Source: a virus
Taxonomy: Duplodnaviria > Caudoviricetes
DNA length: 53,375 bases
Strand: one strand, 5' to 3'
IMG/VR virus record: IMGVR_UViG_3300036816_000028
Span: 1 to 53,375 of that record
Below the pieces are notes generated by a model that saw only the letters and a list, made by a program, of their open reading frames with translations, was not told the origin of the DNA and made no database searches. Each line of letters opens with the position of its first letter. The first letter of the stretch is position 1. The translations under genes were made by a program, and so were the position numbers. Below are positions 1 to 46,089 of this stretch, one piece after another.

Positions 1-1
1 C

Positions 2-904
2 GACTACCGCGCAGAAGTCCACGCGGGTGCGGCCGTCCACGATGATGTTCTTCAGACCTTCGGTTTTGCCCGCGTTCGGAGCACCGGTGATCAGGTAGTG
101 GCCCAGCGGGCGCGACGTCGCGTCGTCCCCGCACATCCACACCGCCATGACGGAGCCGTCGGCCCGGCCGCCGTACACCAGCGGGCCGTCCGCGATGGAC
201 TTCCCGGGCATGCTGGGGCCCGTCCAGACCCGGACGGCGGTGGCGTCGTCAGACGGCTGGAAAGCCACCCTGACACGGTCAGCGCGGCCTTTGACGGGCG
301 TGACAGTCACGTCGTCAGCGCCCATTCCGACCGCGGAGGCGATGTTCTTCCGGGCGGCCACGACGTCGTCCGACGTGCCCTCTCCGGGCTTGAGCTGGAC
401 GTCCGCCTCCACTCGGCCGTCCTTCTCCGTGATCTTCTTCGTCCGGGCTCCGGCCAGGGCCGCCACCCGCTGGAACAGGGGGTCCTTCTCCCGGGTGGCC
501 TTGTCGGCTTCGTGCTGGGGCTGCATGGCGAAGTGCCGGAGGTTCCAGCACAGGGACAGGATCGGGGCACCTAGTGCCCACAGTTTGACCATCTCCGGGT
601 CCAGCGGGTTCCCGGCGCTGGCCAGGGTGAACCAGCCGGTCACGGCGCCGGTGAAGACGGTGGCCAGCGTCCGGGTGTACTCATGCCGGTTGCGCCAGGT
701 CAGGTGGGTGATGCCGGTCAGGACGACCGCTCCGGCGCCCATCCCGGCCGTCAGAGCCGGGTCCCCGTGGACTGCGAACTGGGCGGCCAGGGCTGCGGGC
801 ATGGCGCTGGCGGTGATGGCCCAGGGCTGCGCCCAGGCCGGGATGGGGCCGGAGCCTTGGGCGGTCTCCTGGCCCTTTGACCTGCTCTTCTTCTTGTCGG
901 ACAT
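2..904 (-). CDS. traB: FtsK/SpoIIIE-family conjugative DNA translocase TraB (N-terminal 301 aa; runs off window, absent from ORF track)
   Basis: Manually translated: ATG at 904 with AAGGAGG RBS, MSDKKKSRSK..., N-terminal hydrophobic helices, then GHYLITGAPNAGKT Walker A near 64-105; lies downstream of traA-like and spd-like genes as in Streptomyces plasmids. Confidence 0.8.
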   Translation of the reverse strand, partial: MSDKKKSRSKGQETAQGSGPIPAWAQPWAITASAMPAALAAQFAVHGDPALTAGMGAGAVVLTGITHLTWRNRHEYTRTLATVFTGAVTGWFTLASAGNPLDPEMVKLWALGAPILSLCWNLRHFAMQPQHEADKATREKDPLFQRVAALAGARTKKITEKDGRVEADVQLKPGEGTSDDVVAARKNIASAVGMGADDVTVTPVKGRADRVRVAFQPSDDATAVRVWTGPSMPGKSIADGPLVYGGRADGSVMAVWMCGDDATSRPLGHYLITGAPNAGKTEGLKNIIVDGRTRVDFCAVV

Positions 905-920
905 GGCTCCGGCCCTCCTT

Positions 921-1445
921 TCAGAGCTTGATCGAGAAGTGGCGGTTCTTCGGCTTGTCGGTGCCCTCCAGGAGTTCACCGAAGGCCGCTTCAAAGGCGG
1001 TCCAGACGCCGACGAACTCCCCGGCGTTCTCGGCGAACCCGTCTCCGATCTTGTTCAACCGCTTGGTGACCCGGCGCATCTTGAACACCGCGCCCCAGGA
1101 CCGGTTCTGACGACCCATCTCCTTCGCACCGGCGGTGAGTTCACCGGCGGCCAGGTGGGTCTCCACGGCCAGTCGGTGGCACAGCGCGCGGCCCATCTCG
1201 CAGAAGGCATGGAGGTCGTTTTGGTCGGACAGCTCCTGGTCCACAAAGCCCCTGATCAGGGCCGTAAGGTCCTTCGGGCTGGTGGCGGAGCCACCGGCGC
1301 CCCGGCCGGAGCCGGAGCTGGCCGGGAGGCCGTCTTCGCGCAGCCCGCGCGCCCGTGCGTCGGCCGCGTCCTTCGGGATGGTGCCGCGGGTGGTGTTGTC
1401 CCCCGGCTTCAGCTTCGCATCGGCCATGGCCTGCTCCTCCGTCAT
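921..1445 (-). CDS. traA: Plasmid transfer protein TraA-like (pSN22/pJV1 type)
   Basis: 174 aa, ATGA-coupled to upstream gene; DLHAFCE...KMRRVTKRLNK...VWTAFEAAF pattern and position directly before traB. Confidence 0.6.
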   Translation of the reverse strand: MTEEQAMADAKLKPGDNTTRGTIPKDAADARARGLREDGLPASSGSGRGAGGSATSPKDLTALIRGFVDQELSDQNDLHAFCEMGRALCHRLAVETHLAAGELTAGAKEMGRQNRSWGAVFKMRRVTKRLNKIGDGFAENAGEFVGVWTAFEAAFGELLEGTDKPKNRHFSIKL

Positions 1446-2326
1446 GCGCTCTGGGCAAGCGCGCTGCGCGCCCGCCGGATGCTGGTGTTCATGGTGTTGG
1501 GCTTCGTGTCCTGGCCGAAGCTGTCCCGGATCATGTCCTTGATCACGTCGTCCGGGGTGTCCTCACCCTGGGACAGGATCTCCAGGACGAAGGACTTCAT
1601 GGAGCCGTTCCGGATGGCCCGTGTCCCCGCGGGGACAGGAGCGGTGTCCTTGTCCTCCATGGCTGCGGGGACAGGCTCTGCGGTGGGGACAACTGCCGGG
1701 GACAGTTCGGGGACCGCCGGGACAGCAGCCGCGGGGACAGGCTCAGCAGCCGGGGACACCGGCGCGGTGTCTGCGGGGACAACCGGGCTGTCCTGCGGGA
1801 CAGCGGGGACACCGCCGACGAAGGACACGGCCTGGGACAGGACACGGACGCCGGTCGGGGACGCGGCCAGGTGGAGCAGGTGGCCGAAGACCAGGGCCGG
1901 AATGCAGGAGATCGTGACCGTCAGCGTCTGGTGGTAGGTCCAAGCGTTGCCCGGCTGCCAGCCGGAGCCGTACAGGTGCGCGATGGGCTGGGCGGCCATG
2001 GCCAGCGTGATGGACGCGATGGCACCCCCGACGGCCGTGCGCTTGCCCGGCGCCCCCTTGGGCCGCTTCGTGGCCACGACGGCGGCCACACCGGCGTACA
2101 TGGTCAGCACTGCGGGCATGCCCCAGGCCAGCCAGTCGGTCCACCCGGCCAGGTGCGCCAGGAAGTGCTCCCCGGGGGCGGACATCACCAGGACGATGAC
2201 GGCCACGGCGGGCCGGACCCAGTCCTGAATCCAGCCGACCCAGAGCGGGTTACCGTCGTGGTCGGTGCGGGACAGGACAGGGACACGGGTGGCGTCGGGA
2301 ACGGTGTCCTTCTGCTTCCGGAACAT
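1442..2326 (-). CDS. Spd-like (plasmid spread) membrane protein with Pro/Ala linker and C-terminal HTH-like domain
   Basis: ATG 2326 with GAGGAGG RBS; about 4 TM helices (SAPGEHFLAHLAGW...LAMAAQPIAHL...IPALVFGHLLHLA), VPA-rich linker, helical basic C-terminus. Confidence 0.65.
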   Translation of the reverse strand: MFRKQKDTVPDATRVPVLSRTDHDGNPLWVGWIQDWVRPAVAVIVLVMSAPGEHFLAHLAGWTDWLAWGMPAVLTMYAGVAAVVATKRPKGAPGKRTAVGGAIASITLAMAAQPIAHLYGSGWQPGNAWTYHQTLTVTISCIPALVFGHLLHLAASPTGVRVLSQAVSFVGGVPAVPQDSPVVPADTAPVSPAAEPVPAAAVPAVPELSPAVVPTAEPVPAAMEDKDTAPVPAGTRAIRNGSMKSFVLEILSQGEDTPDDVIKDMIRDSFGQDTKPNTMNTSIRRARSALAQSA

Positions 2327-2441
2327 GGTGTCCTCCTCTTCAGGGACAGACTTTGATTTAGTCGTCCCAGTAAAAGGGACAGTCCCCGGACTGTCAAGGA
2401 CAGCCGGGGACTGATTCGGGGGACAGGGACAGAAGGACAGA

Positions 2442-2846
2442 TCAGGGGTGTCCCTGGGGGACATACGGGCGGGGACGGCGTGTCCTCCAATGCGTCCCGT
2501 CGAAGAATTGTCCCCGCTGTCCCCAGGACGTCATGTGCCAGGGGGTGTCCCCGCTGTCCTGGGTGTCCTCCGTGGAGTCGTCCCCGCTGTCCTGGCCGGG
2601 GACAGGGCCGATCAGCGGTTCCGGGGACAGGCCGTCCTCCACCGGCGGGACGAAGTCCTGTCCCGCCGGAAGGGAGGACAGAGCCAGGGACGCCCGGGAC
2701 ACCGCGGCGCGGAGTCCGGAGAACGCCTCCACGATGGCGGCCATGGTCGCCGACGCCTGGCGGACCCGGTACGGCTCCAGCTTCTGCGCGTCCTTGATCC
2801 ACTGGGACACGGGAGCGCCGTGTCCTCCAGCCGTGTCCCTGCTCAC
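2442..2846 (-). CDS. Hypothetical protein (motif-rich DNA)
   Basis: GTGA overlap with upstream stop; 134 aa. Confidence 0.5.
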   Translation of the reverse strand: MSRDTAGGHGAPVSQWIKDAQKLEPYRVRQASATMAAIVEAFSGLRAAVSRASLALSSLPAGQDFVPPVEDGLSPEPLIGPVPGQDSGDDSTEDTQDSGDTPWHMTSWGQRGQFFDGTHWRTRRPRPYVPQGHP

Positions 2847-3070
2847 CGGACATCGTCCTTCGTGGCGCCCTTGACGATGCCGACCGCCGGGACAGCCGGA
2901 TCGTGGACTTCCAGGGAGACCTCCTTCAGGACACCGCTCCAGCGGATCGTCCCGGACACCCGCTCCAGTCCCCCGGCGCCCTTCGCCCGTGCCGACGCAC
3001 AGAAGCGCTCCAGGTCCACCAGAGTGATCCAGCCCTGCTTCTCACTGACCGTCGTGTGGCTGGTAGCCAT
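2843..3070 (-). CDS. Hypothetical protein (75 aa)
   Basis: ATG 3070 with GGAGG upstream; coupled to next gene. Confidence 0.6.
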   Translation of the reverse strand: MATSHTTVSEKQGWITLVDLERFCASARAKGAGGLERVSGTIRWSGVLKEVSLEVHDPAVPAVGIVKGATKDDVR

Positions 3071-3266
3071 CTCCGTCCAACCTCCATTCCGTGTACAGGA
3101 AGTCCCGCGGGACAGTTCCCGCAGGGATCGATTCGTCCCGCTGGAGGACGATCGACATAAGGCGGCCGACATCCAGTTCTTTCGGGGACTGGACGACCCC
3201 TCCGACGCGCGCCGGGTCGTCGTCGCTCCCCACATCCATGGAGTAGACGTAGACCGCCCGTCCCAT
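3042..3266 (-). CDS. Hypothetical protein (74 aa)
   Basis: TGATG overlap with upstream stop; MGRAVYVYSMD... Confidence 0.5.
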   Translation of the reverse strand: MGRAVYVYSMDVGSDDDPARVGGVVQSPKELDVGRLMSIVLQRDESIPAGTVPRDFLYTEWRLDGDGYQPHDGQ

Positions 3267-3565
3267 CACTCCACGCTCCAGCGCTTCTCCGACAGGTCCA
3301 CGTCGTCGGACATGCCGGTCAGCTCCCGGAGCCAGAAGACCAGGACGGCCCGGTCCCTGGCCGACATCGCGCGCAGCGCCAGGACGGCGCCGGGGTAGTC
3401 CCCGTCCGTCACCGCGTTGAACGCCTCCAGCTCCAGCCGGACCGGCACGGACGTGGCCTTCAGAGACCGCATCTCCCCCGCCGACCTGACCGCCTCCGCG
3501 TCGGCCGCGGAGCCGACTCCGCCCAGTTCCAGCGGCTGGCGGTCGCGCTTCCACCACTTCTTCAC
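3266..3565 (-). CDS. Hypothetical protein (99 aa)
   Basis: GTG 3565 preceded by GGAAGGTAGGAAGATC; high GC3 codon usage. Confidence 0.6.
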   Translation of the reverse strand: MKKWWKRDRQPLELGGVGSAADAEAVRSAGEMRSLKATSVPVRLELEAFNAVTDGDYPGAVLALRAMSARDRAVLVFWLRELTGMSDDVDLSEKRWSVE

Positions 3566-3572
3566 GATCTTC

Positions 3573-4241
3573 CTACCTTCCCCGGTCCGGCCGACCGGCG
3601 GTGGACGTGCCCGGGTGGCTGTACCACTTCCAGGTGACACGGTTGATGTGCTCGAACTTCGCTCCGCCGTCCAGGAGCCTGATCAGGTAATCCTCATCCT
3701 CTCCGCGGTACCGGCCATCCTGGAGCCGGTACCCGTCGCGGAAGCCCCCGGCGGCGCGGACGGCTTCGGTCCTCACCAGATGGGTCATCGGGATGAAGGA
3801 GCCCTGGCGCCGAAGGTGCGCTTCCTGCTCCTTTCCGAAGCGGATTCCCCAGGGCGCCCGGATCTGCCCCTGGAAGGTCACGGCCGTGGGGTCGGGACCG
3901 CCGATCATCTTCGGGGACGGGTAGACCAGATCGACGGCCGGGTCCGCCTCCAGGACGCGCATGCACGCCAGGATGTGGTGGGGCAGGAGTTCGTCGTCAT
4001 CGTCCAGCCAGGCCACCACGTCCGTGGCTACCCGCTCCAGCGCCCGGTTCCTCGCCTCCGCGGCGCCGGTGCGCTCCGCGTCGTACTCCGCCACCACCTG
4101 GTCCGGGAACCGGCGCTGGGCGCGTACAGAAGCCATGGCGCGCTCGAACAGCGCTTCCCGGCCGGGGATGGTAGGAATGACGATCGCCACCGTGAGCCGC
4201 TTCGGGTTCGGGCGCCCGGCGCGCCGCTTCGCCTCACCCAC
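3573..4241 (-). CDS. Glycosyltransferase family 2 (GT-A fold)
   Basis: VAIVIPT, GAAEARNRAL, WLDDDD (DxD), EDEDY motifs. Confidence 0.88.
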   Translation of the reverse strand: MGEAKRRAGRPNPKRLTVAIVIPTIPGREALFERAMASVRAQRRFPDQVVAEYDAERTGAAEARNRALERVATDVVAWLDDDDELLPHHILACMRVLEADPAVDLVYPSPKMIGGPDPTAVTFQGQIRAPWGIRFGKEQEAHLRRQGSFIPMTHLVRTEAVRAAGGFRDGYRLQDGRYRGEDEDYLIRLLDGGAKFEHINRVTWKWYSHPGTSTAGRPDRGR

Positions 4242-4503
4242 GGCCGGGCTTCCCCAGTACCTGGCTGATCTCCTCCGGCGTCATCTCCCGGCCGAAGGGC
4301 TGTTCCGGCGCAGTGAAGTCCACGTGGATGGCGGACACCGTCAGGGCCACCGTGTGGCCGCTGGCGTCGCTGTGCGCCCGCATCCACGCGGAGACGTCGT
4401 CCCAGGCCGTCCCGGTGTCGTTCTCCTTGCAGCCCAGGCACAGGGCCACGTAGAGCGGAATCGAGTCGGCCGGGGTCTTCCTCTTCTGCTCTCCCCAGGG
4501 CAT
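4234..4503 (-). CDS. Hypothetical protein, possible CxxC/His zinc finger (89 aa)
   Basis: TAATG overlap with epimerase stop; CLGC...H...GH. Confidence 0.6.
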   Translation of the reverse strand: MPWGEQKRKTPADSIPLYVALCLGCKENDTGTAWDDVSAWMRAHSDASGHTVALTVSAIHVDFTAPEQPFGREMTPEEISQVLGKPGRG

Positions 4504-5408
4504 TACGCCTCCTTTCTGAAACACCGGGCCACACCCTGTTCCAGCGTGACCTCCGGCGTGTAGTAGCGGAGCATCTTCGACGGGTCCCCGACCCGGTAGG
4601 CGACGCCGGTGGGCTTCCCGGGGTCGGCCGTGATGGACGCCGGGATGTAGCCCGCGGCAGCCGTGACCAGCTCCGCCAGCTCCCGGAACGACGTGGCCCG
4701 GCCGGTGCACAGGTTCACCGGATCGGTCACGTCCGCGTCGGCCAGCGCCATGACTCCCTTCACGATGTCGTCCACGTGGATGAAGTCCCGGACGCAGTCC
4801 CCGCACCACGTCGGGAACGGGTCCTCCCGGCGCCGTGCGCGCTCCACGAAGGCGCGGAAGGGGTAGGTGTCGTCCTGGTCCTCCCCGTAGCCGGAGAAGG
4901 GCCGTACGACCGTCACCGGGACACCGCTGGCGCGGAGCGATCCGGACAGCGCTTCGCCGACCACCTTCGACCAGCCGTACACCTGGTCCGGCGGGACCGC
5001 CGGACACGGGTCGTCTCCGTCGTGCTCGCTGAGCCAGGTCGGGGCAGTCGCACTCTGGTAGGCCGCCGGGTACATGGCGGAGGAGCTGAAGTAGACCACC
5101 CGGCCGGGCTTCGCCTTCGCGGCCCAGCGGAACATTTCGGCGTCGATGGCCAGGTTCACCGCGGTCTCCAGCGGGGAGCCGTCGATGACCTCCCGGCCGC
5201 CGACCACGGCCGCCGCGTGGACGACCAGGTCCCAGCGCCTGACGTCCCGGCCGCCGCGTTGAGCGTCCCGGAAGTAGTGGACGCAGTCCTGGGAGGAGGA
5301 GCGCTTCGTGTCCAGGCCGGTCACGGAGTACCCGCGTCGGACCAGCTCCGCGATGAAGTGGCGGCCCAGGAAGCCCAGGTCACCGGTCACCAGTGCTTCC
5401 ACGATCAC
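4503..5408 (-). CDS. NAD-dependent NDP-sugar epimerase/dehydratase (extended SDR)
   Basis: LVTGDLGFLG (GxxGxxG), FSSSAMY, YGWSK (YxxxK), RPFSGYG, RDFIHVDD. Confidence 0.92.
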   Translation of the reverse strand: MIVEALVTGDLGFLGRHFIAELVRRGYSVTGLDTKRSSSQDCVHYFRDAQRGGRDVRRWDLVVHAAAVVGGREVIDGSPLETAVNLAIDAEMFRWAAKAKPGRVVYFSSSAMYPAAYQSATAPTWLSEHDGDDPCPAVPPDQVYGWSKVVGEALSGSLRASGVPVTVVRPFSGYGEDQDDTYPFRAFVERARRREDPFPTWCGDCVRDFIHVDDIVKGVMALADADVTDPVNLCTGRATSFRELAELVTAAAGYIPASITADPGKPTGVAYRVGDPSKMLRYYTPEVTLEQGVARCFRKEA

Positions 5409-5611
5409 CACTCCCCTTTGAAGTGCGGCGCGTTCGCCGAAAGGTACTGGTTGTCGGTCAGCGGACGGGCGATGGTCCAGGAGCGCCGCGGGTGAAGCGT
5501 CTTCGGCGCGTAGCAGTGTCGGCAGATCCACCGGCGCCAGCCGCGCGGTTCGAACGGGTGGGGCTCCACCTTGGACGGGTGGATCTTCGTAACGTCGGGC
5601 TTCCTCACCAT
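5405..5611 (-). CDS. Small hypothetical protein with H...CxxC...H motif
   Basis: Fills gap with overlaps at both ends; HPF...CRHC...HP. Confidence 0.55.
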   Translation of the reverse strand: MVRKPDVTKIHPSKVEPHPFEPRGWRRWICRHCYAPKTLHPRRSWTIARPLTDNQYLSANAPHFKGEW

Positions 5612-6213
5612 GCGCTCCCACTCCCCGACGTGTTGCCGCCGTGCCAGCGCCACTCCCAGGTCCGGGCGTAGTGGTGGACGAACTTGGCGCCTTCGTTCAG
5701 ACACTTGATCCACATGCCCCAGTCCTCACAGGGGTTGCCCGGATCGCCCCGGTGCTCGAACCCGCCGACGTGGTGGAGCAGGGACGTCCGCGCCAGGACC
5801 GTGATCGGGATGTAGTTCTGGTGGCTGCGGATCGTCTCCGCGTCGAACTCCCGGCCTTCGTACTGCGGGAACGGATCGGTTCCTACCGGCAGGTCGAACC
5901 AGGGGTACACCACGTCCGCGTTAGTGTCCCTGGCGGTCTCCAGGAGCGCTTCCACGTGGTGCGGGTACCAACGGTCGTCGGAGTCGAGAAAGGCCGCCCA
6001 CTCCGCCGTGACGCCCGCCAGGGCCCGGGTCCTGGTGACGGCCGCACCGTCGTGTTCGGTGTCCACCGCCACATGGATGGCGTCCACCGGCCGGGACTGC
6101 GCGGTGACGGAGACCAGGGCGTCGATCAGCATGCCGTTCGCCACGTTCGGCGCGTGGACGGGGATGACGGCAGCCACTTGGCCGCGCCGGTACGGCCACG
6201 CGGTCCCGTTCAC
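5605..6213 (-). CDS. Glycosyltransferase family 2 (paralog of 3573-4241)
   Basis: GTGA-coupled start; VIPVH, GAAVTRTRAL, FLDSDD, CEDWGMW. Confidence 0.88.
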   Translation of the reverse strand: MNGTAWPYRRGQVAAVIPVHAPNVANGMLIDALVSVTAQSRPVDAIHVAVDTEHDGAAVTRTRALAGVTAEWAAFLDSDDRWYPHHVEALLETARDTNADVVYPWFDLPVGTDPFPQYEGREFDAETIRSHQNYIPITVLARTSLLHHVGGFEHRGDPGNPCEDWGMWIKCLNEGAKFVHHYARTWEWRWHGGNTSGSGSAW

Positions 6214-6899
6214 CCCTCCACCGCCCAGCGGATCAAGTCGGCATCGGCCGTCAGGCGTCCGTCCGCTTCGTACGCCAGCCAGAAGGCCCGGTCCGCGCTG
6301 TCCACCGCGGGCGCGTTGGCCTCCCGGTAGCCGTCGTCCATGGCGGCCTTCCCCGCGGCCGGGTGAAGGTGCTCGATCACCGTGTCCGGCAAGTAGACCA
6401 GCGTGCCCAGGGCTTCGCCCAGCGCCTTCCAGTAGTTGTCCAGGTACAGGTGGACCATCCCCGGCGGGACCATGGAGCGCAGCGCCCGGACGATCCGCGC
6501 GTCCATGAAGACGGCAGTCGGCAGGTTGGCTCCCTGGAGCAGGTCGTTCCCGTAGACGATCCGCGGCGTGCCGTCGGCGCCGTCCTTCAGGGCGTGAAGG
6601 ACGGCCAGATCCCAGCCGGGCGTGACCGGGAGGTGGTCGTCCCCCATGAAGCCCAGGGCGTCGTAGCTGTCCATGGCCTCCACCGCCATCATGTTCAGCG
6701 TCGGGCCCAGCCGCTGCCGGTGGATGACGGCCAGGTTGGACAGCCCCAACCGGCAGTAGTCCATGCACTTCGGGTCGTCGTCGTCCACGACGAACCGGAA
6801 GGACACGTCCGTCCCGGCGGCCGTCTCCTGCCAGGTCTTCTCCAGCCGGTCCGCGTTCTCCGGGCGCCCGCGGGACGGCACGATCACCAGCATCTTCAC
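6210..6899 (-). CDS. Glycosyltransferase-like protein (GT-A fold)
   Basis: VIVPSRGRP, FVVDDDD, GFMGDDH, HLYLDN, IEHLH motifs typical of actinophage glycosyltransferases. Confidence 0.75.
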   Translation of the reverse strand: MKMLVIVPSRGRPENADRLEKTWQETAAGTDVSFRFVVDDDDPKCMDYCRLGLSNLAVIHRQRLGPTLNMMAVEAMDSYDALGFMGDDHLPVTPGWDLAVLHALKDGADGTPRIVYGNDLLQGANLPTAVFMDARIVRALRSMVPPGMVHLYLDNYWKALGEALGTLVYLPDTVIEHLHPAAGKAAMDDGYREANAPAVDSADRAFWLAYEADGRLTADADLIRWAVEG

Positions 6900-7138
6900 G
6901 CGGGCTCCTCCACGATCGTCCAGACGTTGTCCCCGACGCCGGAGACAGTCCGCCGGACCATTCCCGCGGTGGACAGCCGGGTCAGGGCAAGGTAGGTGAG
7001 CTGGGGGGAGATCGACAGAGCCTCCGCGATCTCGTTCCGGCTCTTCGGTCCGTTCTCTGCCAGGAAGGCGCGGATCGTCGCGTCACGCCGGACGGTTGTG
7101 TCCGGCCTGGGGCGCCCGCGCTGGGCCTTTTCGGCCAT
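6896..7138 (-). CDS. Winged helix-turn-helix DNA-binding protein
   Basis: AAAGGAG RBS; RGRPRP AT-hook-like, GPKSRNEIAEALSIS...LTRLSTAGMVRR. Confidence 0.8.
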   Translation of the reverse strand: MAEKAQRGRPRPDTTVRRDATIRAFLAENGPKSRNEIAEALSISPQLTYLALTRLSTAGMVRRTVSGVGDNVWTIVEEPA

Positions 7139-7192
7139 CACCGGCTCCTTTCGTTTCATCGGTTCGCTTAACTGTAGCTTGACCAGCCGGTT

Positions 7193-7873
7193 TCAGTGGC
7201 TGGCGTACACCGGCTCCATGAAGCGGTAGAGCCCGTACAGGTCTCCGGGGGTGACGTATCCCGGCCAACGACCATCAACGAACAGGTGCCAGCCGCTGAC
7301 GTCAGCCGCGCGATCGGCCAATTGGCTGCAAATCATGTGGTTACTGGTCTCCACGAAGTGCTTCAGGCCCGGCGCGGGGATGTGGAAGCGGTGCGCCGCC
7401 AGCGCGAAGTAGTCGGCCACGCTGTAGGGCGTGCCGACCAGATCCAGGGCCGCCCCCGCCACGGCCGACCGCAAGTCGTCCGGGCAGCGGAGGTAGACCG
7501 GGTCCAGCCCGTCGTAGCGGGACAGCGGAGAGAGCAGGGCGCCCCCGGGCATGGCCTCCACGATCTTCATCCCGTCGGCCACGTCCCGGTCCTCTCCGCG
7601 GACGTGGATACCGGCCACGACGAAGGCGTGTTCGTAGTCGGCGAAGCCGTCACCGTTGAACCACTGGCCCAGCCGGATGGCCGCACCCCCGGCGCCGGTC
7701 ATGTGGACGATGCCGATGTCTCCGGGCTTCGGCACGTAGGGCAGAGTCCCACCCGCCATGCGCATAACCGCTTCGCTGATCTCCTCCACCTCTTCCTTCG
7801 GGGTTCCGGGAATCGTTCGCAACCGGTGCACGGCGGTTCCGAACGAAACGTCTTCCTTGTCGTCATCGGACAT
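7193..7873 (-). CDS. Permuted papain-like NlpC/P60 amidase (YiiX/YebB-like)
   Basis: PGDIG, YEHAF (His first), VEAMPGG, GTPYS, ICSQL (Cys), VTPGDL. Confidence 0.75.
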   Translation of the reverse strand: MSDDDKEDVSFGTAVHRLRTIPGTPKEEVEEISEAVMRMAGGTLPYVPKPGDIGIVHMTGAGGAAIRLGQWFNGDGFADYEHAFVVAGIHVRGEDRDVADGMKIVEAMPGGALLSPLSRYDGLDPVYLRCPDDLRSAVAGAALDLVGTPYSVADYFALAAHRFHIPAPGLKHFVETSNHMICSQLADRAADVSGWHLFVDGRWPGYVTPGDLYGLYRFMEPVYASH

Positions 7874-7903
7874 GATCGAGTCCTTTCGGGTCAGAAACCT
7901 GGA

Positions 7904-7950
7904 CGGCCCGCGGTGGTGAGGGTGGGAGGTCACCTCACGACCGCGGGCCG
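7904..7950. terminator. Stem-loop (terminator/attenuator-like)
   Basis: CGGCCCGCGGT...ACCGCGGGCCG 11-bp arms with further inner pairing. Confidence 0.55.
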
Positions 7951-18780: not shown

Positions 18781-19254
18781 ATGACGATCAAGGCCATTGA
18801 AACGGCCTACGGCGGATGCCGGTTCAGGTCCCGTCTGGAAGCCAGGTGGGCGGTCTTCTTCGACGCCCAGCACTGGACGTGGACCTACGAACCGCAGGGC
18901 TTCACGCTGCCGTCGGGGAACTACCTGCCGGACTTCCAGGTGGCGCCGTACGGTGGGGACCCGGTCTGGTTCGAGGTGAAGGCGCCGGGTGTGCCGGACG
19001 ACGCGCGGTGGCCGGAGCTGGCCGCCGCTACCGGCGTCCTGATCATCGTGGCGAAGGGCATGCACCGGACCGGAGACGACTGTATGACGGCGCACAGCGC
19101 CGACGTGTACGCGCCCGGGGGTGCGGGCCACGGGCTGAAGCTGTGGATGAACGCCCCGCGGTCGGCCTGGGACGCTGCCTCCGGCGCACGGTTCGAGCAC
19201 GGGGAGTCCGGAGCAGCCGGACGCCGCTCCGGGCGCGGACGGAGGCGTCGGTGA
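18781..19254 (+). CDS. PD-(D/E)XK-family nuclease-like protein
   Basis: FRSRLEARWA, YEPQG, YLPDF, WFEVK. Confidence 0.75.
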   Translation: MTIKAIETAYGGCRFRSRLEARWAVFFDAQHWTWTYEPQGFTLPSGNYLPDFQVAPYGGDPVWFEVKAPGVPDDARWPELAAATGVLIIVAKGMHRTGDDCMTAHSADVYAPGGAGHGLKLWMNAPRSAWDAASGARFEHGESGAAGRRSGRGRRRR

Positions 19255-22200
19255 CCGCGGAGGCGGTGGAGTCCACCGCTGCCGGGCGGCCGACCGACCA
19301 GGAGGCGTCCCCGCTGAGCCTGGCCCACCAGGCGGAGCTGGAGGCGTCCTGCGTCGGTGAGGAGCACATCGCGGCGCGCGGCTACCGCACGCTGTACGGG
19401 TCGGACGAAGACCGCACGGAGCTTCGGGACCTGCGCATCCCCCGTTGGATGTGGCGGGAGCCCACCGCATTCCCGGGTCTGCTCATCCCGGAGTACCGGG
19501 CCACCGGGGAGCTGATCGGCTACCAGTGGAAGCCGGGTCAGCCGCAGCGCAACCCGGAGGGCAAGCCGGTCAAGTACGCCAGTGCGACCGGGGCGCCCAA
19601 CCACATGGACATCCCGCCCCTGGTGGCGGACAAGGTCCGTGACCCGAAACACTCGCTGTGGATCACCGAAGGCGTGAAGAAGGCCGACTCCCTGGCGACG
19701 CTCGGGAAGGCCGTCGTCACGCTGACCGGCGTCTTCAACTGGCGGTCCAAGCTGGGCACGCTGGGCGACTGGGAGGACATCCCGCTGAAGGGCCGGACCA
19801 TCGTGGTCTGCTTCGACGCGGACGCCCGGGAGAAGCGCACGGTTCTCCTGGCCATGGTCCGGCTGGGCCGCTGGCTGACGTCCAAGGGTGCGGCCGACGT
19901 CCGGTACCTGATCGTCCCGGCAGAGGTGGAGCAGGAGGAGGGCGCGCCCGTCGCGGTGAAGGGCGTGGACGACTACTTCCGAGCTGGGGGGACGCTCGAA
20001 GAGCTGGGCGCGTTCGCCACCCGGGAGGAGCCGGGCGGGGGCGGCGCCCAGGACGCCAGCTTCAGTGACGCCGTGATGGCCGACACCGTGTGCGGTGAGG
20101 CGCTGGAGGGGGTCTTCCGCTGGTCCGCAGGACTGGGGTGGATGACCTGGACCGGGAAGGTCTGGCGGAAGGCCACGGACGCCACCGTGACCGAAGCGGT
20201 ACGTCTGTGGGCGCTGGCCCAGTTCGAACGGGTGCTGGAGCGCCAGCGGGACGACCCGAACCGGGACCTGCGGGCCCAGATCGACGGCTGGCGGAGCGCC
20301 CTGGGAAAGGCCAAGCTGAACGCCCTGGTGGCGTTGTCCCGGGGCATCCTGGAAAGCGATCCGGGGGACTTCGACGCCGACCCGGACGCGATCAACTGCC
20401 CGAACGGCATCGTGGACCTGCGAACGGGCTTGATCGTCCCGCACGACCCGGACCGACTGATGACGAAGATCACCGGCGTGGACTACGTCAAGGACGCGGA
20501 GAGCACCGACTGGCTGAAAGCGCTGGAGGCGTTGCCGGAGGGCGTGCGGGACTGGTTCCAACTCCGCATCGGCCAGGCCGTCACCGGCCATCTGACGCCC
20601 GACGACCTGGCCGTCATCTGCCAGGGCGGAGGGGAGAACGGGAAGTCCACAGTCTTCAATGCGCTCCTGGTGGCCACCGGGCTGTATCACATCATGGTGG
20701 CGGACCGGGCCATGTTGGGGAACGCCAGCGACAACCACCCCACGGAGATGATGGACTTCCGCGGCGCGCGGCTGGCGATGCTGGAGGAGACGCCGGAGGA
20801 GCGGCACCTGGACACCAACCGGCTGAAGAAGCTGGTGGGCACCCGGGAGATCACCGCCCGCGGGATGCGCCAGGACGACGTGACGTTCGAGACGACGCAC
20901 TCCCTGTTCGTGAACACGAACTTCGAACCGCAGGTCAACGAGACGGACCACGGGACCTGGCGCCGTCTGGCGCTCCTGAAATTCCCGTACACCTATCGCA
21001 AGCCCCATGAGCCCCTGATGGGCCCGAACGACCGGCGGGCGGACCCGACGCTCCGGCAGCGGGTGGAGACCCCCGCGGTGATGGAGGCGGCCCTGGCCTG
21101 GGCGGTGGAGGGCGCTCAGCGCTGGTACGCGGCCGACCGCATCATGCCGGGCCTGCCGGACCAGGTCGTTGCCGACACGATGGAGTGGCGCCAGAAGTCG
21201 GACCCGATCCTGAAGTTCGCGAACGAGAACCTGGAGTTCGACCGGGAGAGCCACATCACCGGCGCGGAGCTGACCGACGCGTTCATGTCCTTCCTGGAGT
21301 CGGAGCGGTCGAAGCCGTGGTCCGCGAAGACCTTCGTCAGCCGCTTCGGTGGTCACGATCTGTGTTCACGGAACGGGGTCGCATACAAGTTGATCAAGGC
21401 GCGGGCGGGCCGTTCGACGCGGAAGCCGAACCTGTCCGTATCGGCGTCCTACAAGGCGTGGCTGGGGGTGCGCTTCACCACCCCGGACGACACCGATCCG
21501 TCTCAGGATGTGGGATTTTCCCCGGAATCCCCGAACGAAGATCCTTTCGGGGATTTTAAGAACCCGCAGGTGGAAGGGGGTGTTCAAGATCAGGTAACCC
21601 CAGTAACCTCACCGCCGGTTAAGCGCCCTAGTACGCGAGAAACGCAGCTTAACCGGCGTAGAGGTTACTCAGGTTACCGAAACGATGTCGTTTCGATAAA
21701 TGAAGATCATCAGGAAGAAGAAATGTCCGAAATGAGCGAATCCACGGAGCCCGTGTTCTTCGACCTGGAGGGCGCGAACGCCGACGAACTGTTCACCTAC
21801 AGTGATGACGGAGGGTCACCGCCGGTCGGCTTCGTCCGGCTGGCCGGTGCCGCCGTCGGAGAGGGTGAGATCCGCACCGGTGTGCCGGTGGAGAAGCTGG
21901 TCCGGATGCTGGAGGAGCGGCCGTCGGCGGGCCACAACATCCTGGGCTTCGACGGCCTGGCGCTGGCCTTCCACCACGGCATGGACTGGGAGAAGTTCTG
22001 CGCCGGTGCGGTGGACACGGAGATCAACGCCCGGCTGGACGACCCCCCGCGGTCCAAGGAGACCGGTGGGAGTGAGGACCGGTACGACCTGGACCACATC
22101 GCCGCGAAGCTGGGGGTGGGTGGGAAGACCGACTCCGCCAAGCGGCTGAAGGACAAGTTCGGCGGGTACGACCGCATCCCCGTGGACGACCCGGAGTACC

Positions 22201-23489
22201 ACGCGTACCTGAAGGGCGACGTGGCCGCCACCCGGTCGGTGGCCGGTCGGCTGCCGATGACGGAGTACGGCCAGCGGGAGCACCTTCTGGCGTCCCTGGC
22301 GGGACGGATGACGCTCAACGGCTGCCGGGTGGACGTCGCGCTCCTGCGGAAGCGCCTGAAGGACGGCCAGGCACGCAAGCGGGCGGCCATGGAGGAGCTG
22401 GCGGACGGCCAGGGTCTTCCGCTGGGGCGCACCGTCATGCGCGGCCGGGGTGCGGCGAAGGCGCCGGTGTTCGAGCCCTTCAGCTCCCCTTTCAACACCA
22501 CGGAGGGGAAGGAGTGGCTGGCGGACCTATGGCAGCGCTTCGGGGTGGTCCGGCCGCCGGTGACCGACAGCGGGGCCCTGTCCACCGCCGCGGAGCGGCT
22601 GAAGGCTGTGGCGGACAACCCGCGGTGCCCGGCGGAGCTGAAGCACGTCCTGGAGCTGATGGAGGTCATCACCACCACCAGGACCGTCTACCAGACCGCT
22701 GCCACGTACATGACCGCCGAAGGCCGGGTGCACCCCATGGTCTCCATGCGCCAGGCGTCGGGCCGGTGGTCGCTGACGAAGCCGGGCCTGACCGTCTTCG
22801 GGAAGCGCGGCGGGCGCCACGTGGAGCGGGAGATCATCATTCCGGAGCGGGGCCATGTGGTCATCACCTGCGACCTGGCACAGGTGGACATGCGCGGGGT
22901 GGCGGGCCACTGCCAGGACCCGGCGTACATGGAGCTGTTTCAGCCCGGCAAGGACATCCACCAGGAGATCGCGGACATGCTGGGCATCGCCCGGCAGGAC
23001 GCGAAAGCGTTCGGCCACGGGTACAACTACGGGCTCTCACTGAACGGCGCGGTCCGCCGCGGTGCGGACCTGGAGCTGGCAAAGGTCTTCTACCAGGGCA
23101 TGGTCACCCAGTTCCCGGTCAAGGAGGAGTGGACGAAGAAGATCCAGTCCATGGGGGCCCACGGGGACCTCCTGGACAACGGCTTCGGGCGCAAGATGCG
23201 CTGCGACCCGGAGAGCGCCTTCACCGTCGCGCCCGCGCTGATGGGCCAGGGCAGTGCCCGGGACATCACCATGGAGGTCCTGATCCGGCTCATGACGGCG
23301 CACCCGGAGTACCGGCCGTTCCTGCGGATCTACGTCCACGACGAATTCGTCTTCTCCGTTCCGGAGGCCATGGCGGAGGAGGTCGGAGCGGAGATCGAGA
23401 AGGCGTTCACCTGGGAGTGGCGCGGCGTGCCGATTCTTTGTGATCGCACTGCACCCGCGGAGAGCTGGGGTGCGGCCAGTGCGAAGTGA
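19251..23489 (+). CDS. polA: Primase (TOPRIM/DUF3854-like)-D5/SF3 helicase-family A DNA polymerase fusion (1412 aa)
   Basis: WITEGVKKAD and CFDAD (TOPRIM); INCPNGIVDL (D5_N); GGGENGKST Walker A; FDLEG, GHNILGFD, YLKGD (3'-5' exo); DLAQVDMR, RQDAKAFGHGYNYG, VHDEFVF (Pol A/B/C); no stop between domains. Confidence 0.9.
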   Translation: MTAEAVESTAAGRPTDQEASPLSLAHQAELEASCVGEEHIAARGYRTLYGSDEDRTELRDLRIPRWMWREPTAFPGLLIPEYRATGELIGYQWKPGQPQRNPEGKPVKYASATGAPNHMDIPPLVADKVRDPKHSLWITEGVKKADSLATLGKAVVTLTGVFNWRSKLGTLGDWEDIPLKGRTIVVCFDADAREKRTVLLAMVRLGRWLTSKGAADVRYLIVPAEVEQEEGAPVAVKGVDDYFRAGGTLEELGAFATREEPGGGGAQDASFSDAVMADTVCGEALEGVFRWSAGLGWMTWTGKVWRKATDATVTEAVRLWALAQFERVLERQRDDPNRDLRAQIDGWRSALGKAKLNALVALSRGILESDPGDFDADPDAINCPNGIVDLRTGLIVPHDPDRLMTKITGVDYVKDAESTDWLKALEALPEGVRDWFQLRIGQAVTGHLTPDDLAVICQGGGENGKSTVFNALLVATGLYHIMVADRAMLGNASDNHPTEMMDFRGARLAMLEETPEERHLDTNRLKKLVGTREITARGMRQDDVTFETTHSLFVNTNFEPQVNETDHGTWRRLALLKFPYTYRKPHEPLMGPNDRRADPTLRQRVETPAVMEAALAWAVEGAQRWYAADRIMPGLPDQVVADTMEWRQKSDPILKFANENLEFDRESHITGAELTDAFMSFLESERSKPWSAKTFVSRFGGHDLCSRNGVAYKLIKARAGRSTRKPNLSVSASYKAWLGVRFTTPDDTDPSQDVGFSPESPNEDPFGDFKNPQVEGGVQDQVTPVTSPPVKRPSTRETQLNRRRGYSGYRNDVVSINEDHQEEEMSEMSESTEPVFFDLEGANADELFTYSDDGGSPPVGFVRLAGAAVGEGEIRTGVPVEKLVRMLEERPSAGHNILGFDGLALAFHHGMDWEKFCAGAVDTEINARLDDPPRSKETGGSEDRYDLDHIAAKLGVGGKTDSAKRLKDKFGGYDRIPVDDPEYHAYLKGDVAATRSVAGRLPMTEYGQREHLLASLAGRMTLNGCRVDVALLRKRLKDGQARKRAAMEELADGQGLPLGRTVMRGRGAAKAPVFEPFSSPFNTTEGKEWLADLWQRFGVVRPPVTDSGALSTAAERLKAVADNPRCPAELKHVLELMEVITTTRTVYQTAATYMTAEGRVHPMVSMRQASGRWSLTKPGLTVFGKRGGRHVEREIIIPERGHVVITCDLAQVDMRGVAGHCQDPAYMELFQPGKDIHQEIADMLGIARQDAKAFGHGYNYGLSLNGAVRRGADLELAKVFYQGMVTQFPVKEEWTKKIQSMGAHGDLLDNGFGRKMRCDPESAFTVAPALMGQGSARDITMEVLIRLMTAHPEYRPFLRIYVHDEFVFSVPEAMAEEVGAEIEKAFTWEWRGVPILCDRTAPAESWGAASAK
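21593..21695. other. Origin-like imperfect palindrome in AT-richer interdomain linker
   Basis: GGTAACC/AGTAACCTC/CGCCGGTTAAGC mirrored by GCTTAACCGGCG/GAGGTTACT/GGTTACC, then CGAAACGA-TG-TCGTTTCG. Confidence 0.6.
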
Positions 23490-32227: not shown

Positions 32228-34057
32228 ATGCCGTGGTACAACGCCCTGGGCTTCGGCCGCCGACCGGCGCCGCCGGACGTCCCGGCTTCCCTGACCGCGG
32301 CGGCTGCGCCCGTCAAGGGCCCGCAGTCCCAGTTCCTCCAGCACACCCAGAACTGGCAGAACGAAGCCTGGGACTTCTACGACGCCAACGGGGAGTACAA
32401 CTACGGCGTCACCTGGCTGGCCAACATGATGTCCCAGGTCCGACTCCGCGCCGCCCGGTTGGACCCGGAACTGGACGAACCGGAGATCCTGAACGACGGC
32501 GCAGCCGCGGAGATCATCGCCAAGATGAACGGCGGTGTGGGCGGCCAGTCCCAGATGATGCGGTCGCTGTCCACCCAGCTCTCTGTTCCCGGTGACTGCT
32601 ACCTGATCGGGGAGCAGACGGGCCCGGCGGAGAAGTGGACCGTTCGGTCCGTGGACGAAGTCCGGGCGCAGTCTGGCCGCTTCCAGGTCGTGACCGGGCG
32701 TACGCCCAGCGTGGAGTGGTCCGACCTCCCGCCGGACTCGATTCCGGTACGGATCTGGCGTCCGCATGAGCGTTGGCACCACATCGCCGACAGCCCGTCC
32801 CGCTCCGCCCTGTCCACCATGCGGGAACTGGAACTGGTCAACCGGCACATCACCGCCCAATACCTGTCCCGGCTGGCGTCGGCCGGTGTGCTGATCCTGC
32901 CGGAAGAGGTGACCTTCCCGGTGCGGGAGGAGTTCGAAGACGCTCCGGACCCGTTCGTGGCGGAGTGGGTGGAGGTGGCGCGGGAAGGCATCGCCAACCC
33001 GGGCACGGCGTCCGCCGTTGTTCCGATCCCGATCCGTGTCCCCGGTGAGTACGTGGACAAGATCAAACACCTGGACTTCACGCTCAAGATCGATGACAAG
33101 ATCATCGAAAAGCGGGACAGCGCGATCAACCGCCTGGCCACCCAGATGGACATCCCGACCGAAGTCCTGACCGGCATGGGCAAGGTCAACCACTGGACCG
33201 CCTGGCAACTGGACGAAGGCAGCCTGAAGACGCACATTGCGCCGCTGGCGGAGGTCATCTGCTACTCCCTGACCACCGGGTACTTCCAGGCGCGGCTGGC
33301 CGCCTCCAACGTGCCAGACCCGGAACAGTACGTGGTTTGGTACGACATGTCCGAACTGGCCATCCGGCCGGACAACAGCACTAACGCTCAGGCCGCCTAC
33401 GACCGTCTGGAGATCTCTGGGTCCGCGCTGCGTCGTGAGACCGGCTTCGGTGAGGACGACGCTCCGACCACCCAGGAGCTGGAGGCCATGACCCAGAAGG
33501 CCATCTTGCGCGAGGCTCCGGCGTCCCCGATGGCTGCGGTGGCGGCCGACGCCCTGGCCGGGAAGCATGTCTTCGCCGATGCCATGGGCGGGACCGCGGC
33601 ATCCGGCACCGGCGGGGAGGTGGGCACCAAGCAACCCGCGGAGTCGTCCGACGACGGAGCACCGCCGGGGCCGCCGTCCACGTCTCCGCCGTCCCAGGCC
33701 GCACCGAAGGACACGCCTCCGTCCACATCCCCGCCCGGCGCGGAGCGTGCGTCGGCCGCGGTGATCCGCGCGTCCGCCCAGGCGTCCGCCGTCCACGTGC
33801 TGCGCTACTCCGTGGACGCCGTACCGCAGCTTCTGCATCCACCGGGTGTGTGCTCCACGCACGCGTATTCCTGCCCGTTCACACACAGTGCCTGGGGCCG
33901 CTGGCTTCCGTCTCTGACCACCGGGACCTACGAAGTCCGCCTGGACGCCTTCGGACAGCTCCGGGTGGGCCGTTTCGCGCCGGAAATGGACACGTTGGGC
34001 TGGATCACCACCACAACGGCGGTGGGTCGGAAGGGGACCAACTATGCCCGCGCATGA
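32228..34057 (+). CDS. Portal protein
   Basis: WQNEAWDFYD, RIWRPH, SRLASAGVL, NHWTAW motifs of actinophage portals; position before head genes. Confidence 0.85.
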   Translation: MPWYNALGFGRRPAPPDVPASLTAAAAPVKGPQSQFLQHTQNWQNEAWDFYDANGEYNYGVTWLANMMSQVRLRAARLDPELDEPEILNDGAAAEIIAKMNGGVGGQSQMMRSLSTQLSVPGDCYLIGEQTGPAEKWTVRSVDEVRAQSGRFQVVTGRTPSVEWSDLPPDSIPVRIWRPHERWHHIADSPSRSALSTMRELELVNRHITAQYLSRLASAGVLILPEEVTFPVREEFEDAPDPFVAEWVEVAREGIANPGTASAVVPIPIRVPGEYVDKIKHLDFTLKIDDKIIEKRDSAINRLATQMDIPTEVLTGMGKVNHWTAWQLDEGSLKTHIAPLAEVICYSLTTGYFQARLAASNVPDPEQYVVWYDMSELAIRPDNSTNAQAAYDRLEISGSALRRETGFGEDDAPTTQELEAMTQKAILREAPASPMAAVAADALAGKHVFADAMGGTAASGTGGEVGTKQPAESSDDGAPPGPPSTSPPSQAAPKDTPPSTSPPGAERASAAVIRASAQASAVHVLRYSVDAVPQLLHPPGVCSTHAYSCPFTHSAWGRWLPSLTTGTYEVRLDAFGQLRVGRFAPEMDTLGWITTTTAVGRKGTNYARA

Positions 34058-37000: not shown

Positions 37001-37283
37001 GGTCCACGCCCTGCGCGCGGCGGGCCAGGTGTCCGGAGACTGGCGCCGGATCGGCTCCGCGCTGCGCTTGGTCGGTCTCCTGGCCGTCAACGTCCCCGGT
37101 TTCCCGGTGCCGAAGATGGCCACGCGGGTGACTGCGTCGGCTGCCGGGTCCGAAGTCCAGACCGCACTGGTGGCCGCCGGGCGCCCGCCGGTCGCGCACG
37201 GCACCACGGAGAAGGAGCTGATCCAGGCGTCCTTCCGGACGGTCATGGACGCGCTGTCCCGCGGTGTCCACAGCGAGAGCTGA
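34044..37283 (+). CDS. 2H phosphoesterase + MuF-like + capsid maturation protease fusion (1079 aa)
   Basis: HLTL...HICA 2H motifs; LDSNTCGPCRAIDG...CAGGSACRG MuF; TGDGREF, GVSID, ATLCDIPAFAEA protease; C-terminal SGDWR domain. Confidence 0.8.
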   Translation: MPAHDHFTGAHNAITADASSDHLSGCMVALMPTEQDAARMAVDGGEAAADLHLTLAYLGPDANAWDDAARTELTGFLRSVIQSSEFGSWNSFTAKVFGAAHWNGDGDSPAWVWSVGDQPDDDSMDHDGDALEDYHDLVFDALESGHDHPDLPAPHSPWVAHICAAYSADDAFLPLLEAKLGTVTFDRLRLSFGDDDTDIPLNTDVAMSGPLTAAGMRRKPKGFESASTVDFALMDSSWKAAVDRAYVAWMAILSAQRQELTDQVKAAVDGGDFADLAAMTVSTAAAVDLLSEHMARFAQTAGQQQEHEADRQGVAVPPWALTDDDPEGVTASLSSAAKSFLSRMRAYASVVASSLANRMVSSASQRSITLAEADADGAAVARDVETYLADHPKAYVRQGIAAAMTMAQNTGRLAVLTAAPPGSYYASEMLDSNTCGPCRAIDGKEFATLNAAEDAYPAGGYVDCAGGSACRGTMVTVWDAGQTASATPKEGIVAETEDLGGKPNPGTKKDKRLKENDQGKAKAVGDADHFAAGASVSDKPWDGAASRFNDDQWKRATAACDGDGTPKEACFLPHHEPDGTLNRNGLHAAAQRVGSVTGRSPAAVAHAKSHLRNHYSQIGEDAPDSIAATLGDAVEMALAPADPDAVMPASDSNTAPWRGPLAVEGKTTGDGREFAAGSLTWRDLPVPLRWNKEDSHGGEAHTVAVNVGRIDKIWREGDLVMGEGVFNLAEADGQRAHDLVKGQFLRGVSIDADSISDKDVEYVWPDVGPEDGDGEDMDILDLLFAQPEKVLFHAGRISAATLCDIPAFAEAYVALLDSEGAVTAGGTPAGAQGGGGYAVRGVRARTVDGLTAAISAPDWKPPAEWFANPQLSLPTGIQVTDDGRVYGHAATWGSCHIGQADVCVQPPREENHPYYMTGEVVTADGGRVSVGQITVGTGHAPLSMGAVPATEHYDHTGHAVADVHVGNDEHGIWVAGAIRPGAPADLVHALRAAGQVSGDWRRIGSALRLVGLLAVNVPGFPVPKMATRVTASAAGSEVQTALVAAGRPPVAHGTTEKELIQASFRTVMDALSRGVHSES

Positions 37284-45669: not shown

Positions 45670-46089
45670 ATGAAGGACTTCTCCCGGGCGCGGCCCACTG
45701 TAGGATTCAAGATCGATAACGACGTCTTCACCGGGGTCCCCGCCATGTCGGCCGACGACATGGTGACCCTGGTGGCGACGTTCTCCGACATGGACGAAAA
45801 CGACCCGGTCCAGGTAGCCAAGACGATCAAGAACATCGTCAGGAACCTCCTGGACAGCCGGTCGGCGGACGTCTTCGTCAACCGGATGGGCGACCGGACG
45901 AACCCGATCGAGTTCGACCAGGCCAACGAGATCATTCTCTGGCTGATGGGTGAGTACGGCATGCGCCCTACCGAACAGCCCTCACCCTCTGGGAGTGGGC
46001 CAGCCAGCCCGGAGTCTGGCATGAGCTTGACGGAACCTACGTCGGTCGCGGTATCGACCTCCTCTCCCTCCCCTGGGCCCAATTCCTGA
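45670..46089 (+). CDS. Tail assembly chaperone (G)
   Basis: Directly upstream of tape measure; TAGCGT-N7-ATG leaderless start. Confidence 0.75.
   Translation: MKDFSRARPTVGFKIDNDVFTGVPAMSADDMVTLVATFSDMDENDPVQVAKTIKNIVRNLLDSRSADVFVNRMGDRTNPIEFDQANEIILWLMGEYGMRPTEQPSPSGSGPASPESGMSLTEPTSVAVSTSSPSPGPNS

Follow-up and report, generated by a model that had tools for sequence, protein, structure and literature searches.

A GGACA motif field around a phage membrane-protein gene as a candidate binding-site array of the protein's own C-terminal domain

Upstream of a homologue of the plasmid transfer gene traB, the viral contig IMGVR_UViG_3300036816_000028 of IMG/VR (linear, 53,375 bp, 68% G+C; analysed whole and called the window below) carries a field of 56 exact copies of GGACA/TGTCC. 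The field is bipartite and surrounds one gene, here named A, whose product is a predicted membrane protein. It exceeds what the encoded proteins call for, recurs at homologous loci, and changes its word together with the C-terminal domain, or tail, of protein A. On this comparative evidence we propose, with a probability of roughly 0.55, that the field is the cognate binding-site array of A's tail and would tether the locus to the membrane. The field and the genes that it covers are as follows.

1507 to 3114, both orientations: the whole GGACA/TGTCC field, 56 sites, core RGGACAS
1507 to 1844: downstream arm, 22 sites over the parts of gene A that encode the linker, the C-terminal domain and the helix after the transmembrane (TM) domain
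1845 to 2269: gap over the DNA encoding the conserved TM core, 1 site, at 2180
2270 to 3114: upstream arm, 33 sites in the 5' end of A, the A-B intergenic region and the open reading frames (ORFs) B and C
1442 to 2326, minus strand: gene A, 294 amino acids (aa), GAGGAGG upstream of the ATG at 2326
2442 to 2846, minus strand: ORF B, 134 aa, high G+C at third codon positions (GC3), 17 sites, homologue in relative L006 only
2843 to 3070, minus strand: ORF C, 75 aa, 4 sites, homologue searched for and none found

A first-pass annotation, made from the sequence, had reported about 55 copies on both strands and in different frames, against roughly 3 expected. The exact count is 56, with 33 sites on the plus and 23 on the minus strand and several reading frames in use; the figure of 3 is what uniform composition gives, whereas the rest of the window predicts 6.1, a 9.2-fold excess (Poisson p 3e-34). 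The sliding count along the genome that the annotation had called for peaks here at 56, with at most 16 copies in every other 1608-bp segment, and no second GGACA field was found elsewhere in the window. The window as a whole holds 252 GGACA/TGTCC against 153 +/- 12.5 in 100 dinucleotide shuffles, none of which reaches 252. The motif core is RGGACAS: the base before GGACA is A in 20 sites, G in 33, C in 3 and T in none, and the base after it is C in 21, G in 27, A in 4 and T in 4. GGGACA occurs 33 times against 1.16 expected, and 46 of the 90 RGGACAS sites of the window sit in the field, which occupies 3% of it. Spacing is irregular (5-51 bp inside each arm), with no dominant period. Two simple readings were rejected. 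Tandem repetition as the origin of the field explains small parts only, duplication being minor (one 66-bp unit present twice at 70% identity, plus a few short arrays), and 0/56 sites have before GGACA the T needed by a TTGTCCACA-type DnaA box.

Counted by segment, 5 sites lie in the tail-coding part of gene A (1445-1621), 14 in the linker-coding part (1622-1816; 72 per kb), 4 in the DNA for the post-TM helix and the TM domain (1817-2245) and 4 at the 5' end of the gene; the non-coding gap between A and B (2327-2441, 115 bp) has 7, ORF B 17 and ORF C 4. The linker, the C-terminus, the promoter region and the upstream small ORFs are thus all covered, as had been described, and the reported near-absence from the TM-coding stretch 1845-2180 amounts to a single site, at 2180.

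The first-pass annotation took the excess as a sign of selection on the DNA that shapes the protein, a view for which it had named a codon-shuffled control. When synonymous codons are permuted within each gene, the excess persists in A, B and C. Gene A holds 27 sites against 11.6 +/- 1.9, and its codons 171-294 hold 19 against 8.2, neither count being reached in 2000 shuffles; gene B holds 17 against 7.4 +/- 1.8 (0/2000) and gene C (2843-3070) 4 against 0.85 (7/2000). The flanking genes D and E show no enrichment of the motif in the same test. For homologous A genes, 0/500 shuffles reach the observed count in 17 of 18 cases, the remaining one being L012 (5/500). The composition of the linker tracks the local word across relatives: VP amounts to 6.5% at RGGACA loci, whose linkers hold VP/SP/DT, ED to 5.0% at GAGGACA loci, [PAT]DT to 3.0% at CGGACA loci and ET to 5.3% at GAGACG loci.

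Modelled by AlphaFold with 48 homologues, protein A has four TM helices (residues 28-155, DNA 1862-2245) followed by one more helix, a disordered linker (residues 171-240, DNA 1607-1816) and a C-terminal three-helix bundle (residues 243-293, DNA 1448-1600) with a predicted local distance difference test score (pLDDT) above 90. The tail helices span residues 243-252, 259-270 and 276-293, and the tail modelled alone reaches a pLDDT of 83. Its third helix reads NTMNTSIRRARSAL and is basic, with R285 invariant in 48 sequences, so that the tail combines a compact three-helix bundle with a basic third helix, two features of helix-turn-helix (HTH) domains. Searches of Pfam and PHROGs placed none of A, B, C and D in a family (for A, nothing at E<=1), and Foldseek on the whole model of A gave no match. 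For the tail, the nearest folds, all of them non-significant, are mostly HTH or winged-helix DNA binders.

Protein A has 298 homologues at E<=1e-3, and the nearest named relatives of the gene are in Streptomyces phages and in Streptomyces and Embleya genomes. The comparison drew on 27 loci from viral contigs, 8 from genomes, 50 from metagenomes and 2 GenBank phages, which with the window make 88, or 77 non-redundant ones once 11 duplicates are removed; a locus search of viral contigs with a single sequence gave no confirmed relative, whereas an alignment query did find them. We scored a GGACA field wherever the A homologue had 12 or more sites at a density of 10 or more per kb; 39 of the 77 loci (38 besides the window) have one. 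The gene order in L005-L010 is glycosyltransferase, field, A, D, TraB; L011 and L012 have no detectable D, yet carry fields, and L021 yielded A and TraB only. The bipartite layout recurs in all eight loci examined in detail among those with the tail type that we call class I: the upstream arm holds 15-46 sites, the downstream arm 12-36, the TM gap 1-5 in ~375-385 bp, and 1-7 sites lie past the stop of gene A.

When homologous loci are compared for joint change of motif and domain, as the first-pass annotation had advised, the word changes with the C-terminal domain of A. Tails matching the class I profile (n=28) go with GGACA in the top 6- or 7-mer in 26 loci, the exceptions being L045 (CTGACA first, CGGACA second) and L053 (CGGACG). 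Next to MerR/HTH_17-like tails (n=27), GAGACG/TGAGAC is the top 6-mer in 17, and other tails of this type have words of their own (GAGCAA, GCTCAC, CGCGCA, CTCAGC, GCGTCA). A third tail type, joined to the same TM domain, occurs in 7/7 loci without a comparably enriched word (top 6-mer scores 5-13), and in phage Success, whose HTH tail differs again, the word is GAGAG(C). Two phages with conserved gene order but a swapped tail carry a swapped word. These are L010, which keeps the full order of glycosyltransferase, A, D and TraB, and L021, which keeps A and TraB; in both, the tail is MerR-like (STVRTWK) and the field holds 20-70 copies of GRGACG, the word of MerR-tailed loci that have no TraB within 5 kb. 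Their TraB proteins, 51% (L010) and 42% (L021) identical to that of L005, are within the range of the class I phages, and on a tree of TM domains both nest among class I rows.

At a finer scale, the residue in position four of helix 3 (N[TS]-x-X) goes with the base that precedes GGACA. Where this residue is N or H, a purine is in the majority in 10/10 loci (68-95%), and where it is S, R, Y or W, the commonest base is C in 19/19 (41-89%). On the TM-domain tree the base class changes four times, and 3/3 independent contrasts are concordant. The class I tail itself is rare (45 clusters in 1.84 billion representatives) and always C-terminal. In P0131, P0135, P0136 and P0138 it occurs without the TM domain, and the QD/DT/PDT-rich repeats found there encode GGACA. 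The C-terminal domain that the first-pass annotation had nominated as reader thus gains comparative support, since word and tail co-vary across the 77 loci, and it stays a predicted reader.

In an alternative scenario, which we consider unlikely, another protein (phage B, C or D, or a host factor) would read the array, and gene A would merely lie in its landing zone. The lack of significant likeness between A's tail and known DNA-binding domains would fit such a scenario, as would the use of a near-class I word by some MerR-like loci, as if a reader were shared. However, no gene besides A consistently accompanies the field (B occurs only in L006, C in no relative, and D is missing from L011 and L012), a different tail on A comes with a different word even where the gene order is otherwise kept, and the loci of the third tail type have no field. 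Nor would a host factor predict five or more words among Streptomyces, Embleya, viral and metagenome elements.

Genes A, D and traB stand in a row, all on the minus strand.

921 to 1445, minus strand: gene D, 174 aa, no known family, its ATG overlapping the stop of A (ATGA, 1442-1445)
2 to 994, minus strand: 5' part of the TraB homologue, start TTG 994 or ATG 904, cut by the contig end
2369 to 2397, minus strand: TTGACA-17 nt-TTTACT, a promoter-like sequence before gene A, recognised by eye

If the field is read by A's tail, we envisage the following. A would be an integral membrane protein with its N-terminus, basic TM2-TM3 loop and C-terminus in the cytoplasm, as the positive-inside rule predicts. 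The three-helix domain, on its disordered linker of ~70 residues, would read RGGACAS, and newly made A would load in cis, coating ~1.6 kb, because about 56 sites flank and overlap its own gene. Coated in this way, that part of the phage genome would be docked at the membrane, close to the TraB pump, whose gene comes second after A in the row. A would probably also throttle the A-D-traB promoter, given that the promoter-like spacer consists of two motif copies. Reader and sites may be inherited and swapped as one cassette, since the downstream arm lies in DNA encoding both the linker and the reading domain.

Known proteins also place DNA at the membrane through a DNA-binding module and a membrane anchor: Noc with its NBS sites, RacA with ram, and p16.7 of phi29. 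Such a module joined to an anchor is what A is predicted to share with them. The sites of Noc and RacA are scattered over the chromosome and their anchors are peripheral or indirect, and p16.7 binds DNA without sequence specificity, whereas A would combine a modelled polytopic anchor with one compact array in its own locus. The p16.7 protein is among the non-significant fold neighbours of the tail in Foldseek.

Several observations weigh against a tail that reads the field. The first-pass annotation called this domain an HTH; the three-helix bundle is confidently modelled, but comparison with known DNA-binding families gave nothing significant, the best match among PDB profiles has E 0.13 and that in Foldseek E 1.9, and the Atlas structure matches, with an HTH_32 region, all fall below the significance bar. 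L010 and L021 sit on long branches and are flagged as unsure by the tree tool. Purines together outnumber C in two of the loci where C is the commonest base, L058 and L062, and the three contrasts on the tree are too few for significance (sign-test p only 0.25). The mapping of tail to word is not one to one, MerR-like tails in L029, L035, L037, L085 and L087 going with CGGGAC(A/G), near the class I word. Finally, members of the A family exist without TraB within 5 kb, and Pfam searches of 10 neighbours of two such loci, L013 and L020, gave PP2C/SpoIIE-like matches only. As some of these members bear fields, a role linked to TraB cannot be general; the general role may instead lie in docking element DNA at the membrane, TraB being one of the clients.

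That A binds the array and uses it solely as an operator field, repressing A-D-traB in the manner of a kil-kor brake and without any membrane tether, is a rather unlikely variant. It draws on the promoter-like TTGACA-17-TTTACT, whose spacer is made of two inverted motif copies that also form a terminator-like hairpin after ORF B, and on the repressor control of plasmid traB, unregulated TraB being toxic (PMC4447253). This promoter was read by eye, though, and a promoter scan tool called none. Moreover, an operator would need far fewer than 56 sites, which here extend through 1.6 kb and of which 22 fall in the final third of the gene; four TM helices would fix the reader in the membrane, which a plain repressor does not require; and fields are present in loci without traB within 5 kb.

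The relationship of the field to TraB requires separate treatment, as the first-pass annotation had also offered TraB as a reader and clt as the likeness of the site. The homology of TraB is clear in the full-length protein of L005 (668 aa; L005 6361-8364), which matches annotated Streptomyces plasmid TraB at 28-30% identity and aligns with small-plasmid 'plasmid transfer protein TraB' over 93-99% of its length (E 1e-40 to 1e-52); the L005 protein has no match in 50,697 GenBank phage records. In plasmids, clt lies at the 3' end of traB. Because the contig end cuts traB, its 3' end and any clt array lie outside the window. In 6 of 9 TraB-bearing relatives (L005-L009 and L021), an array of (C/G)TGACA begins just past the traB stop, its 6-11 copies being spaced mostly by 10-13 bp and for the most part pointing the same way; none was found after traB in L010, L011 and L012. 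The arrays lie at these positions.

L005, 8371 to 8489: TGACA array
L006, 8687 to 8779: TGACA array
L007, 5619 to 5761: TGACA array
L008, 8367 to 8522: TGACA array
L009, 8528 to 8654: TGACA array
L021, 8322 to 8493: TGACA array

The annotated conjugative plasmid L091 (traA, traB) likewise has eight copies of C(C/G)TGACACC across its traB stop (4937-5038). In L021 the TGACA array is retained although the field word is GAGACG. By position and sequence, the TGACA array after traB is likely the phage clt, and the GGACA field is probably not a TraB site, because 6 of 9 relatives possess the separate array. The annotation's choice of TraB as reader finds no support in view of these arrays, nor does the clt identity in view of L021.

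That the field is itself the clt of this phage is accordingly given very little weight. Both are short words repeated in cis within a row of genes that contains traB, only one base separates GGACA from TGACA, and clt regions contain direct 8-bp repeats recognised by the corresponding TraB, which would bring double-stranded element DNA to a membrane machine (PMC4447253). In contrast to the few direct repeats of clt at the 3' end of traB, the field comprises 56 dispersed copies that are irregularly spaced and point either way, is situated upstream of traB, where it overlies another gene, and has counterparts at loci with no traB within 5 kb. As a separate observation, CTGACA, the putative TraB word of relatives, is rare in the window (5 against 24.3 +/- 4.6), and 100/100 dinucleotide shuffles, which do not keep codon structure, have at least 5.

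Equally remote is a replication origin with iterons in coding DNA. Phage lambda offers the precedent, since the O protein has its binding sites over the linker-coding part of its own gene, reader and sites co-vary among related phages, and four iterons with an AT-rich region start replication at ori. The dense repeats over the linker-coding part of gene A recall this arrangement. Here, however, there are 56 sites, and A is a predicted membrane protein without features of a replication protein; the polymerase-primase and the helicase are encoded elsewhere in the phage, the cumulative GC-skew minimum lies at 16-18 kb, where transcription diverges, rather than at the field, and by eye the sole AT-rich stretch of the field is short (~2350-2375). 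A centromere role, which the first-pass annotation had also suggested, is less likely too. The clustering of repeated sites, comparable to parS or sopC, agrees with it, but no ParA-type partner lies beside the field, no AAA_31 or ParB_N match was found in the window (~65% complete), and the ParA-type gene of the complete linear relative pS1D4-14.2, at 85.3 kb, is ~76 kb from its traB locus at 7.5-9.4 kb. Finally, it is scarcely credible that the word has no function in the DNA and is a by-product of a repetitive Pro/Asp-rich linker or of local composition: although the protein sequence alone does lift the expectation (11.6 in shuffled gene A against ~3.4 from the window background), the shuffles of A and B contradict it, 7 sites lie in 115 non-coding bp, sites occur on both strands and in several frames, the word recurs upstream in relatives within ORFs that are unrelated, and linker composition changes with the word, not the reverse.

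The name spd, given to gene A by the first-pass annotation, fits by position only. Like spd genes, A shares a gene row with traB in which stop and start codons overlap, and the order is kept in L005-L010. By sequence, A could be linked neither to a described Spd protein nor to DUF2637: tblastn of protein A against 72,556 plasmids gave no match, and when hhalign compared the A family with a DUF2637 protein whose gene precedes traB in a plasmid, the probability was 1.6%. The sole, sub-threshold DUF2637 match (E 0.015) belongs to gp8 of phage Success, a distant relative of A. One comparison is with SpdB2 of pSVH1, an integral membrane spread protein whose gene likewise precedes traB in a shared row where stop and start codons overlap. 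SpdB2 is oligomeric, binds double-stranded DNA and interacts with TraB (PMC4447253). Like SpdB2, A is predicted to hold DNA at the membrane; the DNA binding of SpdB2 is non-specific, whereas A would be sequence-specific with its own array of sites, and homology between the two was not found in the searches just given. Another comparison is SpdA2 of pIJ101, whose site reportedly lies inside its own coding region and acts in stability, not in transfer. SpdA2 is, as A would be, a DNA-binding protein of a Streptomyces mobile element with a short motif, in its case the palindrome sps (PMC4170104). The two differ in that SpdA2 is a soluble protein with one palindrome, and A a predicted four-TM protein with 56 dispersed sites. 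In the published literature, supplementary files aside, we found no account of such a field or of the A protein family; the phage literature mentions merely 'FtsK-like' genes, to which it assigns no role.

The DUF2637 protein of plasmid L091 (362-1363), encoded upstream of traA-traB, is made up of a TM domain, a long coiled stretch of Arg and Glu, and an HTH at the C-terminus. The gene for it is also rich in repeated 7-mers (AGCGTGA 7 against 0.0 expected, CGTGAAC 9 against 0.2), and these may simply encode ERE repeats.

A cultured relative of the phage is found in pS1D4-14.2 (NZ_CP041606.1; L090, L092, L093), a 98.8-kb linear 'plasmid' of a Streptomyces strain. It has homologues of the major head protein (58% identity) and portal (57%) of the window and a TraB 42% identical to that of L005, besides the ParA-type gene and a tyrosine recombinase, and is probably a linear phage-plasmid of the same clade as this phage. 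In the literature searched, a genome announcement alone names it. As it shares capsid, portal and TraB genes with the phage, there may be a tractable host. At L090 2649-4311, pS1D4-14.2 also encodes a membrane protein of its own, with an HTH at the C-terminus; the 3' half of the gene, together with the next ORF, carries about 20 copies of CGAAAG(C) (18 against 0.2 expected). The product of that ORF (3848-4258) has a class I-like tail at its end, and GGACA itself forms a small cluster at 1865-2467.

The remainder of the window, whose completeness CheckV puts at ~65%, encodes a terminase, a portal, major head and major tail proteins and a head-tail adaptor, together with a fused primase-polymerase, a helicase and a RuvC-like resolvase, and on this gene set represents a tailed phage of Streptomyces type. 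Megablast of positions 1-6000 against phages and plasmids matched nothing. Adjoining the field (3573-7933, minus strand) are two glycosyltransferases, a nucleotide-sugar epimerase and an enoyl-CoA-hydratase-like gene, and the glycosyltransferase next to the field is retained in relatives. Two very long ORFs lie on the plus strand at 18816-23489 and 34044-37283. One is the primase-polymerase fusion, of 1557 aa; the other, of 1079 aa, has an RNA-ligase-like start and matches to portal, virion-structural and head-protease families. G+C falls to 0.625-0.631 at 46001-50000, against ~0.69 elsewhere, and the ORFs there have no PHROG match.

In a tentative extension of the proposed reading, with the odds clearly against it, the A family of phage and prophage membrane proteins would use a swappable tail to seize 20-75 cognate sites in and around its own gene and, in this clade of tailed phages and linear phage-plasmids, would dock the genome at the membrane by a TraB with its own TGACA clt. 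If true, phage DNA could move in double-stranded form between hyphal compartments or mycelia without virions. Two arrays can be told apart within a single row of genes, a large field that goes with the membrane protein and a small regular TGACA array that goes with TraB, which makes the working of a conjugation-type DNA pump in a tailed phage directly testable. The field also offers a clean case in which DNA-binding sites would dictate the amino-acid make-up of a disordered protein linker. Lastly, for an unstudied family with 298 homologues and no Pfam model, it supplies a testable cis-trans pair, a polytopic membrane protein with a predicted reading domain and an array of sites, that would travel as one cassette.

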